From Patescibacteria group bacterium (GTDB taxonomy: Bacteria; Patescibacteriota; Patescibacteriia; Patescibacteriales; JBAZCA01), in NCBI GenBank assembly GCA_041671125.1, contig JBAZCA010000003.1, positions 689 to 64,688 of the forward strand: a stretch of DNA of 64,000 bases. Direction: 5' to 3'. The notes beneath the pieces were generated by a model. That model did no database searches and had not been told where the DNA came from. It worked only from the letters and a program-made list of their open reading frames with translations. A program made the position numbers and the translations under genes. This document shows, one piece after another, positions 4,548 through 8,528 of this stretch (within the stretch, counting starts at the first letter, position 1; every line of letters starts with the position of its first letter).

Positions 4548-5459
4548 ATGTCTAAAAAATCCGTAAAAATTCTTATCATCTCTAATTTGCTGTTTTTAGT
4601 TTTTTGTTTCACGCTTTTTCCCTCTTTGGCAAACGCCTGTAATTGCATGTGCTCTTTTAGCGGCGGCGCGGAACAATACGTCGGTACAGCTTCTGATAAT
4701 AATTGCAATTATTTTTGGTGCGATACTACCAAAGGCATGTCCGGCAGTCCGCATTGCGCTACTGACTCAACCCAGCAAACCGGCGCCGCCAATTTCACCC
4801 CCCAAATCGGCATTCCGGGTTCGGAGTTCCAGCAGGGCGCGTCCATCGCGGTTTCCAATAATACGGCCACTATCGCCAATTATGTCAAAGCCATTTACAA
4901 ATATTTAATCGGCATCGTCGGGATTACGGCGGCCATAATGCTTATGGTCGGCGGCGTAGTCTGGCTTACGGCCGGCGGCTCGCCGGAGCGAGTCAAACAG
5001 GCGCAGGATTATATCGTCGGCTCTCTAACCGGATTAGCCTTGGCTTTAGGATCTTTTTTAATTTTGGGCATGATAAATCCAGCCTTGGTGAATTTCAGGA
5101 TTTCGGGGATTGGAACGGTAAGTAGCCCTGCTCCATCCTCATCCACGACAGTGTCGGGCGTATCAACTACGGGATGTTGTAACGGCAGATATGGTTGCAT
5201 TGCTCCGTCAAAAGATGATTGCAATAATAATGGCGGAAACTGGCTTGACGCGACTAGCATAAATTACACGTGTGAAAACAACTATACTTGTACTGAAATA
5301 AAGAAAGAAGAGTTGGGGTGTTGTGAATTTTACGCGTTTATGAAGATTGGAAAAACCTGCCAGGGAAATCTTAATTATAGTGCCTGCATGAAGCTAGTAG
5401 ATAACCCCACCTTTAGTAAGGGTTACACGTGCGTTAGTCCTAATTGTGTTCCTCATTAA
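4548..5459 (+). CDS. secreted/membrane protein: VirB2/TrbC-like pilin core with Cys-rich N- and C-terminal regions (P1)
   Basis: Signal peptide MSKKSVKILIISNLLFLVFCFTLFPSLANA. Two-helix core IYKYLIGIVGITAAIMLMVGGVVWLTAGGSPERVKQAQDYIVGSLTGLALALGSFLIL, then a Ser/Thr linker and a C-terminal head with many Cys. Confidence 0.6.
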   Translation: MSKKSVKILIISNLLFLVFCFTLFPSLANACNCMCSFSGGAEQYVGTASDNNCNYFWCDTTKGMSGSPHCATDSTQQTGAANFTPQIGIPGSEFQQGASIAVSNNTATIANYVKAIYKYLIGIVGITAAIMLMVGGVVWLTAGGSPERVKQAQDYIVGSLTGLALALGSFLILGMINPALVNFRISGIGTVSSPAPSSSTTVSGVSTTGCCNGRYGCIAPSKDDCNNNGGNWLDATSINYTCENNYTCTEIKKEELGCCEFYAFMKIGKTCQGNLNYSACMKLVDNPTFSKGYTCVSPNCVPH

Positions 5460-5539
5460 AGCCATACTTTCTTCCCCGCGCCCGGCGGGAGTTTCCAGCA
5501 GGGACTCCCGCTCAAAGAAAAACAATTCTACAAATCCCC

Positions 5540-6724
5540 ATGCTAAAAAATTTCTTAAAACCGCTATTATTTTTCTGTTATCTGTTATCTGTTTTCTGTT
5601 TTCTGGCAATTCCCGCTCAGGCCATAAGTGATAGTTCTCCATACTGGGGCGATTTTGTCGCGCCACCCATACAAATCCCTATTCCGACCGTAAGTATAAC
5701 CAAAGATTCGGTTAAGTGCGAAGGCGACTACTGCGAAATCCCCTGGATCGGCCAATACGTCGCCGGCATCTATAAATACGCGATCGGCGTGGTCGGGATA
5801 ATCGCGGCCATCATGCTCATGGTCGGCGGAGTCAGATGGCTAACAGCCGGCGGCAACGCCTCAGCCGTGACAGACGCTCAAAGTTACATAACCGGCAGTC
5901 TCACCGGTCTGGTCTTAGCGCTTTTATCCTACACAATTCTTTATACCATCAACCCGGCGCTCGTATCATTTAAGCCGATCAGGGTAAAGATGGTGGAGAA
6001 GGTAGATATAATGAGCAATACCGGGGGATTAAGCTGCAGCGCTATAACCAATGAAAGCGAATGCAATGCGGATAAGCAACAATTAGGCTATGAATTTTAT
6101 AAAGGCGCGGAGTGTCCTGGCGCGGCTGATGCCTGCAAAAACAATCTCGAAGATTACAACGGTTGCATGAGCGGAAGAATGTGCTGTTGCACGAGAAGCG
6201 CGCAAGCTGGGTGTTCCTGGGCAACAGATCCAACGGATACCACCTGCGGAAATAACGCCCGGCAGGTTTCCGAGTACAGTAAATGCGGAACCAATACCGG
6301 AGGCATGTCCACTTGCTGTTGCAATTGGGCGAGCGAAGGGGGAGGGGACGCACAAAAATTATTAAACTGCATACAGGGCGCAACATCCGGTTTTGGAAGC
6401 GGTTCAATAAAAGGCTCAACTGAATCAAATAAACAGTGTTGCGAAAATTGGACTCCAAGTTGCGGACACTCCCAAACTAGATCAAATTCTTGCCACTTTG
6501 GATGCAAGAATGGATACCAGACCATGGCTATCGATTGGGGGTTGGGAGGTTCTAGAGATTGTAATAAAATTTGCGAAACAGCAAAAAATATTAGCTCGAA
6601 ATGTTCAGGTGACATCAAAGGTTCAATACTTGGACCTACTTTCTGTCCATCATGTAGCGGTTATAATCCATATCAAGATCATGACGATCATTTTCATATG
6701 AGTGTTAAGGGATGTATTCAATAA
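5540..6724 (+). CDS. secreted/membrane protein: pilin-like core fused to a Cys-rich head, possibly a LAS-type metallopeptidase (P2)
   Basis: Start moved to the ATG at 5540, giving signal peptide MLKNFLKPLLFFCYLLSVFCFLAIPAQA. Core IYKYAIGVVGIIAAIMLMVGGVRWLTAGGN and linker FKPIRVKMV. The head has CC/CCC runs and ends SCHFG..AIDWG..DHDDHFHMSV. Confidence 0.6.
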   Translation: MLKNFLKPLLFFCYLLSVFCFLAIPAQAISDSSPYWGDFVAPPIQIPIPTVSITKDSVKCEGDYCEIPWIGQYVAGIYKYAIGVVGIIAAIMLMVGGVRWLTAGGNASAVTDAQSYITGSLTGLVLALLSYTILYTINPALVSFKPIRVKMVEKVDIMSNTGGLSCSAITNESECNADKQQLGYEFYKGAECPGAADACKNNLEDYNGCMSGRMCCCTRSAQAGCSWATDPTDTTCGNNARQVSEYSKCGTNTGGMSTCCCNWASEGGGDAQKLLNCIQGATSGFGSGSIKGSTESNKQCCENWTPSCGHSQTRSNSCHFGCKNGYQTMAIDWGLGGSRDCNKICETAKNISSKCSGDIKGSILGPTFCPSCSGYNPYQDHDDHFHMSVKGCIQ

Positions 6725-6729
6725 ATACT

Positions 6730-7302
6730 ATGAGCAAAAAAAAATTGATAATTATTTTTTTGATAACAACAGTATTAACTATGGGAGGATTTTTTCTGTT
6801 CCGAAAAAAAATTTCAAAAAAATGTGTTAATTTAAAAGGAGACAACCAAGCCATTTGCATAAAGGAAGAAGCGGTTAATAGCGGCAATTTAAAAATGTGC
6901 GGACAAATTTTCAATAATAACTTGAAATACTGGTGTTATTATGAAATCGCCGATAAAAACAACGATCATAAAATATGCAAGAACCTAAGTGAATCCGACA
7001 ATTGTTACTTGAAAATCGCCATAAACTTAAAAGATGAAAAAATTTGCGAAAAAATTTTTCAAAAAGATATTAAGGCTTATTGCATAATCAACGCGGATCC
7101 CGAATGTCTTCCAAGTAAATTCTATACAATAGACAACGAAGGAAAATTCAATTGCGCTGACTCAAAAATCAAAAAAGAATGCGAGGTGAATGTAAACTGC
7201 CAGTGGAGTTATTATGAAAATAATACCGGCTCAAGCGACTGTACCTGCTGTCCCAAAGACCCGAATAAACAGCCTGACCGGTGCCTGGAAAAGGGGGAAT
7301 AA
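6730..7302 (+). CDS. membrane-anchored/secreted Cys-repeat protein (P3)
   Basis: ATG at 6730 lies 5 nt after the P2 stop. N-terminal hydrophobic helix, then about three 24-aa repeats of the form IC..I......C(Y)..IA... Confidence 0.5.
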   Translation: MSKKKLIIIFLITTVLTMGGFFLFRKKISKKCVNLKGDNQAICIKEEAVNSGNLKMCGQIFNNNLKYWCYYEIADKNNDHKICKNLSESDNCYLKIAINLKDEKICEKIFQKDIKAYCIINADPECLPSKFYTIDNEGKFNCADSKIKKECEVNVNCQWSYYENNTGSSDCTCCPKDPNKQPDRCLEKGE

Positions 7303-7337: not shown

Positions 7338-8528
7338 ATGAATAAAAAACTGAAAATATTTTTAACTTTTTTCCTTTTTGTCGCTTCTGTTTTTTTCTTC
7401 CCTTTTATTGCCCTGGCCGCCGACAAATGGATTCCGCCGACTTTGCAAATATCCATTCCGACCCTAACCGGATTCAGCGCGCCGGAGAAGTGCGATACGG
7501 CGCCGGACGGCCAGCCGATTTATTGCGTCGGTTGGATCGGCGAATATATCGGCGCGATCTATAAATACGCGATCGGCATTATCGGCATTGTCGCGGCTAT
7601 CGCCTTAATGATTGGCGGCGCTAGATGGCTTACGGCCGGCGGAAATCCTTCGGCCGTTAAAGACGCCCAAAGCTGGATTACCGGCGCGATTACCGGCCTC
7701 ATAATCGGCCTCGCTTCATACCTAATACTCTATCAAATCAATCCGAACCTGGTGATTTTTAAGCCGATCAGGGTAAAGATGGTAAAAGAAGTAGCAATCA
7801 GCTCGGTAAACGATCGTCTTATAAATTGCTCAATAAAATCGGCTTCGGAATGCGCCATCGGCTCTAACGGAATGAAAACTGACGATTCATGGAATAAATG
7901 CGCCAAACCAACTTGCGCCCCGGATGATATAGGCTGTCTGTCGCAAGTCTGCTGTTGTTTTGAAAGTCCCCTGCCTAACTGCCAATGGGAAACTGACTGC
8001 TCCGCTGGACGCGAACCGGCCGACGGCGCCGGTTGCGGAACTTTTTACGGCGGACTGGCTGAGAAATGCTGTTGTTCAAAGGCAACCGGAGGATGTAATC
8101 CGGCGGAAACAGGAGCTTGCTCGCCGAAACTTCTTCAGGCAAACGGCGGCAACTGTTTTGGAAGCAACATAAATGAAGCATCAGCAATATGCCAAAAAGA
8201 AAGTTCCGGAAACGAAACAAATACCAATCCTCAGGCAAAATGCAGTTATAATGGTAATAAATATCCTGTCGTAATCGGCTTATTTCAAATTAATATCAGC
8301 GCCAATATAGTAAGAGATTCGTCAGGTAACTCTTACAACTGCCGTTCCGCTTTTGACAAGCCATATTCTGATAAATCACCAAACTGCAACATAAATAATT
8401 GGGGTTTGTACGACCAATGCAAAAAACTTATGGAATCAGCCGCCAATAATATTGCGACTGCATGCAGTTTATCAAACAACGGAAGCAACTGGGGTAAATG
8501 GGTGGCCAACGATAATTGTAAATATTAG
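7338..8528 (+). CDS. secreted/membrane protein: pilin-like core fused to a Cys-rich linker and an SLT/lysozyme-like head (P4)
   Basis: Signal peptide. Core IYKYAIGIIGIVAAIALMIGGARWLTAGGN and linker FKPIRVKMV are shared with P2. The C-terminus carries ICQKESSGNE....VIGLFQIN, resembling the ES...GLMQ signature of lytic transglycosylases. Confidence 0.6.
   Translation: MNKKLKIFLTFFLFVASVFFFPFIALAADKWIPPTLQISIPTLTGFSAPEKCDTAPDGQPIYCVGWIGEYIGAIYKYAIGIIGIVAAIALMIGGARWLTAGGNPSAVKDAQSWITGAITGLIIGLASYLILYQINPNLVIFKPIRVKMVKEVAISSVNDRLINCSIKSASECAIGSNGMKTDDSWNKCAKPTCAPDDIGCLSQVCCCFESPLPNCQWETDCSAGREPADGAGCGTFYGGLAEKCCCSKATGGCNPAETGACSPKLLQANGGNCFGSNINEASAICQKESSGNETNTNPQAKCSYNGNKYPVVIGLFQINISANIVRDSSGNSYNCRSAFDKPYSDKSPNCNINNWGLYDQCKKLMESAANNIATACSLSNNGSNWGKWVANDNCKY

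Follow-up and report, generated by a model that had tools for sequence, protein, structure and literature searches.

Patescibacteria possess monoderm-type type IV secretion systems (T4SSs) together with arrays of 2–11 VirB2-like pilins, and most of the members with VirB2 homologues carry no recognisable VirB1, according to a survey that covers 3,035 genomes (PMC12102498). Both the T4SS cluster of Southlakia epibionticum and its six short pilins are essential (PMC10633639; PMC12857230). Next to VirB4, this cluster has genes for an M15B-like peptidase and for a stand-alone protein that combines two lysozyme-like domains with a Cys protease (PMC10633639 supplement). The role of the T4SS and of the VirB2-like pilin arrays in Patescibacteria has been called "completely unknown" (PMC11665869). 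Here, we analysed the gene P4 in a stretch of 64,000 nucleotides from a Patescibacteria group bacterium (contig JBAZCA010000003.1, positions 689 to 64,688; hereafter the window), which is part of a 174-kb metagenomic contig. P4 (7338–8528, + strand) is an open reading frame (ORF) of 396 amino acids (aa) plus stop that encodes a pilin with a lysozyme-like head, and its product is identical to NCBI MFA6393462.1 / MFA6928052.1, a 'hypothetical protein' from a Patescibacteria group bacterium metagenome-assembled genome. We consider it very probable that P4 is an exported domain of the peptidoglycan-glycosidase type that is tethered by a VirB2-like hairpin.

The P4 protein consists of four parts, in the order signal peptide, VirB2-like pilin hairpin, Cys-rich spacer and lysozyme-like C-terminal head. 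These parts and the key positions of the head, all on the + strand, are as follows (AF2, AlphaFold2 model).

7338–7421, +: predicted Sec signal peptide, aa 1–28 (...FIALA/AD); hydropathy segment aa 3–32, helix 3–26 in the full-length model
7527–7739, +: VirB2-like pilin module, hydrophobic helices aa 67–99 and 104–134 with a short loop (...GGARWLTAGGNPS...); from Pfam, hydropathy and AF2
7770–8084, +: Cys-rich spacer, aa 145–249, two modules each with a terminal CCC; shared with the paralogue P2
8085–8525, +: lysozyme-superfamily head, divergent SLT_3 member, aa 250–396 (about 147 aa), 9 Cys
8199–8204, +: Glu288-Ser289, where helix 2 ends on its C-terminal side, with the Glu as candidate general acid of catalysis; from alignment and AF2
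8235–8237, +: Ala300, which is Asp in 121 of 133 relatives and covaries perfectly with position 312
8271–8273, +: Val312, which is Ser in 121 of 133 relatives
8277–8294, +: G314-L-F-Q-I-N319 motif, after the beta-hairpin; from alignment

Amino acids 64–131 of P4 match the Pfam model T4SS_pilin (PF18895) at 28.6 bits, above its cutoff of 26.6. Since the N-terminal module passes this cutoff and the head lies in the same ORF, the covalent fusion of a VirB2-like with a muramidase-like module, which the original prediction had proposed from the DNA letters, is real. The signal peptide, with a cleavage site taken from the sequence pattern only, is followed by two hydrophobic helices with a short loop between them, as in pilins, and these are seen both in hydropathy (segments 70–100 and 112–134) and in the AF2 model (helices 67–99 and 104–134; predicted local distance difference test, pLDDT, 80–92). 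A PDB fold search with the full-length AF2 model returned generic helical hairpins only (e.g. ATP synthase subunit c; E > 3), which is uninformative for the pilin claim. The peptides quoted in the prediction, NNIATACSL and NWGKW among them, are in frame in ORF 7338–8528, and its Glu codon is GAA at 8199–8201, followed by Ser289.

The Cys-rich spacer that was expected between the two modules is present as well, with 15 Cys in aa 151–254 and with CCC triplets at 7950–7958 and 8067–8075. At about 104 aa it is unusually long, for the linker of pilin-head proteins usually has 7–70 aa, with a family median of about 30 aa, and AF2 leaves it unmodelled (pLDDT about 40 in the full-length model). All 26 Cys of P4 are located outside the hydrophobic segments and 24 of the 26 come after helix 2, a placement that would fit a hairpin of N-out/C-out topology whose C-terminal part is oxidised and lies outside the cytoplasm. 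CCC triplets were also seen in 12 of 99 pilin-head relatives, and P0001 contains one such module. Within the P4 gene, the G+C content of the head part (8100–8528; 40.3%) is lower than that of the pilin (48.4%) and the spacer (51.2%), as might result from an exchange of modules, or just from an Asn/Ser/Lys-rich composition.

In the search with the head alone, the Pfam model SLT_3 (PF18896, 'Lysozyme like domain') is matched with E = 7e-4 and 20.4 bits against a cutoff of 27 (17.4 bits for the whole P4 protein), and Pfam SLT (PF01464) with E = 0.04 and 13.9 bits (cutoff 21.3), in which only model positions 11–48 are covered. A hidden Markov model search for the SLT domain proposed earlier returns an SLT-type score, below the cutoff for both SLT_3 and SLT. 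This score of the head alone is suggestive only, and homology is concluded because of an exhaustive phmmer search, which was decisive: for the 142-aa head, 334 relatives reach E <= 1e-3, 112 of them also E <= 1e-10, and the top one has E = 2e-35 and 56% identity. SLT_3 is matched by 46 of 47 diverse relatives (best 2.5e-11), several of which exceed its cutoff (e.g. 35.3, 33.9 and 29.2 bits), and SLT by 9 of the 47 at E <= 0.1. We therefore regard the head as a lysozyme-superfamily domain and a divergent member of the SLT_3 family. Two short motifs alone, from which the head was originally proposed, are weak evidence; with 334 relatives and an invariant Glu288 the similarity is beyond chance. 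The earlier assignment needs to be revised in two respects. An SLT-like head is there, but its family is SLT_3 and not classical family-1 SLT or goose-type; and the head does lie at 8170–8528, but according to the profile match and AlphaFold it starts earlier, at about aa 250–255 (8085–8100), so that helix 1 and half of the Glu helix had been missed.

Other searches gave little. With the head alone, a word-indexed homologue search found nothing, and the exhaustive search was needed; phmmer found no match among PDB sequences, and the c-type lysozyme Pfam models gave no match at E <= 10. A profile of 47 head sequences against PDB matched silkworm lysozyme only (E = 0.24), and there was no relevant match for P4 in NCBIfam and PHROGs. 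When the head profile was compared by hhalign with hen lysozyme, only a 13-residue stretch with GLFQIN was aligned, at 3% probability, and membership in GH22 (c-type) is not claimed. Placement in classical family-1 SLT, goose-type or c-type was not possible in general: the SLT cutoff is missed, the Asp52 position holds Val, and the spacing from Glu to G-L-x-Q is long.

The AF2 model of the head, built from a 31-sequence alignment, has a pLDDT of 96.0 and a predicted template modelling (TM) score of 0.89. E288 is model residue 34 at the end of helix 21–35, which is followed by strands 47–50 and 53–56, forming a beta-hairpin, and by further helices; a catalytic Glu that closes a helix, with a beta-hairpin after it, is a feature of the lysozyme superfamily. 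The order of helix and beta-hairpin is presumably similar to the secondary structure of hen egg-white lysozyme (HEWL). In Foldseek, the top PDB matches were hen lysozyme and alpha-lactalbumins (TM 0.52/0.56, E = 0.24), followed by MltE, phiKZ gp144 and Bdellovibrio DslA, while the viral models included an 'entry lysozyme' of a Rhodococcus phage (E = 0.013) and many SLT / LT_GEWL proteins. With matches to the lysozyme superfamily only, though none of them significant, the model is in line with the fold that was predicted for this part of P4.

To summarize conservation, we used an alignment of 133 head sequences. E288, G314, Q317, C335 and C361 are invariant (133 of 133), so the Glu that was picked out in the original prediction is retained in every homologue aligned, and S289, L315, F316, N319, Y358, A375, W388 and C394 are conserved in at least 94% of the heads. 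Around the two motifs, S289 is found in 128 heads, and the L, F, I and N of GLFQIN in 127, 130, 118 and 132, respectively. E288 and G314 are 26 residues apart, which leaves 25 residues between them, just as the earlier estimate of about 25 had it. The C-terminal A-C-x-L-S-x-N-G stretch of the head bears no more than a loose resemblance to A-Y-N-x-G of family-1 lytic transglycosylases. Three pairs of Cys covary in the head (261/285, 273/376 and 302/350), consistent with disulfides.

Positions 300 and 312 form a further pair. D300/S312 is found in 121 of 133 heads and A/T300 with V/M312 in the other 12, without any mixed case, and P4 belongs to the latter with A300/V312. This perfect coupling suggests a structural contact, probably not a second catalytic acid, and would leave Glu288 as the sole invariant carboxylate, the same single-carboxylate situation as in lytic transglycosylases. 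Asp300 was considered as a second catalytic acid, but it covaries perfectly with Ser312 and gives way to Ala/Val in the 12 sequences, which argues for a structural pair, without proving it. As for the catalytic pair of c-type lysozymes, the Glu is present, and the second position is Val312 in P4 and Ser in 121 of 133 relatives; we take Asp52 of HEWL to sit two residues before the G of GLFQIN, which is position 312 of the head. The chemistry of the P4 head may be that of a lytic transglycosylase or that of a hydrolase. As regards the ES...G[IL][FL]QIN pattern and the best structural matches, which are non-significant, c-type lysozyme is at least as good a fit.

The fusion of pilin and head is not unique to the window. 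A pilin domain precedes the head on the same chain in 99 of 149 complete head-bearing cluster representatives, and precomputed Pfam tables list PF18895 and PF18896 together on homologues named Parcubacteria, Moranbacteria, Paceibacterota and Patescibacteria. In a scan of species-representative genomes, which used a 10-sequence alignment and the pattern FQINISAN and samples only part of the family, 14 head loci were found, 12 of which have pilin and head in one ORF. Their records are mostly labelled Paceibacterota, Doudnabacteria, Saccharibacteria and Moranbacteria, with L013, L015, L016 and L023 among the Saccharibacteria, and two carry the labels Gammaproteobacteria and Bdellovibrionales (as deposited). 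The pilin-head fusion is a recurrent Patescibacteria architecture that is already covered by PF18895 plus PF18896. A literature search found no paper describing a pilin-lysozyme fusion, most subscription-journal papers being outside the searched set.

In three of these loci (L011, L017 and L020), a VirB4-like ATPase (P-loop_TraG, AAA_10, DUF87, CagE_TrbE_VirB) is encoded 0–2.4 kb upstream of the head gene, and this synteny is one of the grounds for linking the fusion with the T4SS.

L011, 5913–7679: VirB4-like ATPase
L017, 4948–6861: VirB4-like ATPase
L020, 7565–9376: VirB4-like ATPase

The head protein of L020 (9380–10372) comes directly after VirB4 and has a charged N-terminus and a single transmembrane helix in place of the pilin hairpin. 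The small membrane proteins encoded before these three ATPases look PrgI/VirB3-like by eye.

Two types of locus were seen repeatedly. In the first one, an array of three to five short pilin genes (106–160 aa; L002–L004, L008–L009 and L013) begins with the lysozyme-headed pilin. In the second one, the lysozyme-headed pilin is accompanied by another long pilin, which bears a different head and either follows it (L014, L015, L016, L019 and L023) or lies upstream of it (L021). The second long pilin of L023 contains Peptidase_C39_2 (E = 3.6e-13), and the second heads in L014, L015, L016 and L019 contain LAS-type H..D / H-x-H motifs. Several second heads show the series HS..S-x-H..A-x-D..H-x-H, and for those similar to the P2 head Pfam gave nothing.

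L023, 8684–9706: second long pilin
L015, 6369–7295: second long pilin
L016, 10966–11838: second long pilin
L019, 1538–2380: second long pilin
L014, 12091–13005: second long pilin

Several side features of the family were also recorded. The same head ends P0008, P0009, P0016 and about 20 other proteins of 860–1190 aa, which have long low-complexity N-terminal regions, transmembrane segments and no further Pfam domain. P0087 (682 aa) is a single pilin protein that carries, one after another, an M15-like motif region, the SLT_3 head and a C-terminus resembling Peptidase_M15_4, which would place glycosidase and peptidase together on one pilin. A conserved protein of 920–1040 aa with no Pfam match, which could be an unrecognised T4SS component, is encoded directly upstream of the headed pilin in L005 (6826–9948), L007 (7072–9906) and L014 (6698–9472), and the L007 locus is about 10 kb from dnaA.

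In the window itself, P4 is one of three tandem T4SS_pilin genes (P1, P2 and P4), and the neighbours of this pilin array are housekeeping genes (ruvC, yebC, rpoBC).

4548–5459, +: P1, T4SS_pilin 27.1 bits, with a C-terminal tail of about 115 aa that is rich in Cys
5444–6724, + (public gene call start 5540): P2, with the same pilin and CCC spacer and a head at 6344–6721

The pilin part of P1 is 56–68% identical to the pilin parts of P4 and P2, and its C-terminal tail has no family match. P2 resembles P4 over aa 1–257, i.e. pilin and spacer (41.6% identity, E = 2e-47), and diverges completely beyond; its spacer at 6000–6340 has the two modules with terminal CCC that are conserved between P2 and P4. 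Pfam gave nothing for the P2 head, which contains the motifs HS..SCH..AID..HFH at 6461–6475, 6488–6502, 6524–6538 and 6689–6706. A 7-sequence profile of the P2 head and similar second heads matched Sonic hedgehog N-domains with E = 1.6e-6, and a phage L-Ala-D-Glu peptidase weakly (E = 0.9), which points to a putative Hedgehog/DD-peptidase (LAS) zinc-peptidase fold. By these profile and motif matches, the window appears to encode a glycosidase-like head (P4) and a peptidase-like head (P2) on stalks of one kind. Between P2 and P4 lies a further gene (6712–7302, + strand; public call start 6730) with 32.8% G+C, compared with 44.4% for the window. Its product of 190–196 aa is N-terminally anchored, Cys-rich and without any family match, and the gene may have been inserted into the pilin array at a later time.

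The domain identities, the conserved residues, the recurrence of the fusion and the VirB4 synteny in other genomes are shown by the analysis. Beyond these, a mechanism can be outlined in which topology, catalysis, the target wall and any place in a pilus are inferred. P4 would be exported by Sec, and its two pilin helices would form a membrane hairpin whose two ends face outwards. About 100 aa of disulfide-rich spacer would keep the head off the membrane, in or beyond the cell wall, where the head may cut the MurNAc-GlcNAc (N-acetylmuramic acid–N-acetylglucosamine) backbone with the invariant Glu288 as general acid. Peptidoglycan would thereby be cleared locally where the pilin array or T4SS apparatus crosses the bacterium's own wall, and P4 might work together with P2, whose zinc-peptidase-like head on the same stalk would add a peptidase to the glycosidase. 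This VirB1-like wall-opening function in cis for a pilin or T4SS apparatus, paired with the peptidase-headed paralogue P2, is put forward tentatively, as a reading with a good deal in its favour that still falls short of being probable.

The same heads could also be directed outwards. Headed pilins in or at the tip of a T4SS pilus might carry the lysozyme head of P4 and the peptidase head of P2 to the wall of a host bacterium for attachment, nutrient uptake or effector delivery, for which phage tail-associated lysins offer an analogy; we think this possible, though rather unlikely. It would give a function to the T4SS and pilin arrays that are essential, and unexplained, in Patescibacteria epibionts (PMC11665869; PMC10633639; PMC12857230), and the short pilins that accompany headed ones in L002–L004, L008–L009 and L013 possibly form the shaft. 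A long spacer would project the head, and an exchange of heads on a conserved stalk, as between P2 and P4, together with a diversity that spans lysozyme, LAS peptidase and C39-like peptidase, is typical of outward-facing, target-adapted modules. However, polymerisation of the headed pilins is hypothetical, a C-terminal load of 250 aa may not fit a pilus lattice, and the array in the window contains no short pilin. Moreover, heads on non-pilin anchors and directly after VirB4 fit a housekeeping VirB1-like role equally well. The fuller version, a Patescibacteria pilus that has its own wall-cutting tools, with lysozyme- and peptidase-headed pilins at the tip or along the shaft breaching host peptidoglycan and P2/P4 as one tool set, seems unlikely to us.

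Several observations weigh against the reading of P4 as a T4SS-associated, wall-cutting pilin, and two other explanations draw on them. The P4 head is below the gathering cutoffs of both SLT_3 (27 bits) and SLT, and its fold matches all belong to the lysozyme superfamily, yet none is significant (best E 0.013–0.24, TM about 0.5). The scan of the largest ORFs of the 64-kb window, with several ORFs of 100–400 aa outside it, detected neither VirB4 nor any other T4SS machinery gene, and 50 of 149 head-bearing representatives have other N-termini or membrane anchors, i.e. the head is not strictly pilin-dependent. It is conceivable, if improbable, that the pilin-like hairpin is merely the two-helix membrane anchor of a housekeeping autolysin for growth or division, unrelated to pili or type IV secretion: P4 stands among ruvC, yebC and rpoBC apart from any T4SS ATPase in the scanned part, a third of the family is anchored by other means, and the fold search with the hairpin gives generic helical hairpins alone. 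Yet this hairpin scores above the T4SS_pilin threshold and is strongly conserved among the fused proteins (E down to 1e-31 against a custom pilin profile), the fused genes are located in pilin arrays, and in three genomes head genes adjoin VirB4. The remaining point concerns activity, which could be altered or reduced in P4, given that P4 is without the Asp300/Ser312 pair found in 91% of the family. Taken further, and with alpha-lactalbumins among the fold matches, this would make the head a non-catalytic lysozyme-like domain (cf. alpha-lactalbumin) that only binds glycan or another ligand as an adhesin tip. We hold this to be very improbable, for Glu288-Ser289 and GLFQIN are invariant or nearly so in both subfamilies, as expected for a constrained active site, and family-1 lytic transglycosylases need only a single Glu.

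The fusion is visible in domain databases, and P4 is an ordinary, somewhat divergent member, so the value of the present analysis lies in interpretation and not in a new family. Pilins with a lysozyme-like or peptidase head offer a concrete and testable answer to the question of the Patescibacteria T4SS role, in which paralogous pilins would bring the wall-degrading function with them. Both the T4SS and the pilin arrays are essential in the one genetically tractable species of Patescibacteria, and the heads are small, confidently modelled and expressible domains, which turns the question of the target of the apparatus into one of enzymology and imaging.

In comparison with known proteins, the closest are the Pfam SLT_3 plus T4SS_pilin proteins of Patescibacteria, which share the motifs of P4 (E-S, G-L-F-Q-I-N and a C-terminal W), whereas the P4 head differs from the SLT_3 family in small insertions, the minority A300/V312 pair, a sub-cutoff score and the long Cys-rich spacer. 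VirB1 and the family-1 lytic transglycosylases (Slt70, MltE) share with P4 a helix that ends in Glu-Ser and, after it, G-L-x-Q, and the lack of a second catalytic carboxylate in P4 is a further likeness, while the five probable disulfides of P4 are a difference. We take the family consensus ESGGNP of the head to resemble family-1 motifs such as that of MltE, and the spacing from Glu to G-L-x-Q in family-1 enzymes to be about 15, compared with 26 in P4, where the beta-hairpin is longer. VirB1 is a separate soluble protein, whereas the P4 head is fused to a pilin, and a VirB1-like, T4SS-associated wall-opening role of the P4 type is suggested by the VirB4 synteny in other loci.

The c-type (GH22) lysozymes, for example hen egg-white and silkworm lysozyme, are similar to the P4 head in size (about 130–145 aa), in the ES and G-[IL]-[FL]-Q-I-N motifs and in being disulfide-rich, and they are the top Foldseek PDB matches and the only PDB profile match of the head, none of them significant. 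Unlike them, the P4 head has no Asp52 equivalent, shows a different Cys covariation, and is bacterial and membrane-tethered. Phage virion-associated lysins also carry a lysozyme-fold wall-cutting domain on a filament-forming structural protein, and the best fold matches among viral models are SLT, LT_GEWL and 'entry lysozyme' proteins of phages; P4 differs from them in having no relation at the level of sequence (no PHROG match) and in its carrier, a T4SS pilin and not a tail protein. The pairing of P4 with P2 is comparable to PrgK of pCF10 and TraG of pIP501 in Gram-positive T4SSs, bifunctional VirB1-like hydrolases that combine glycosidase and peptidase (PMC12102498), and to SEML1_0006 / SEML1_0007 of S. 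epibionticum, which bring glycosidase and peptidase activities to a monoderm-type T4SS (PMC10633639 supplement). However, these are all dedicated proteins, whereas in the window each type of activity would be carried by its own VirB2-like pilin paralogue.

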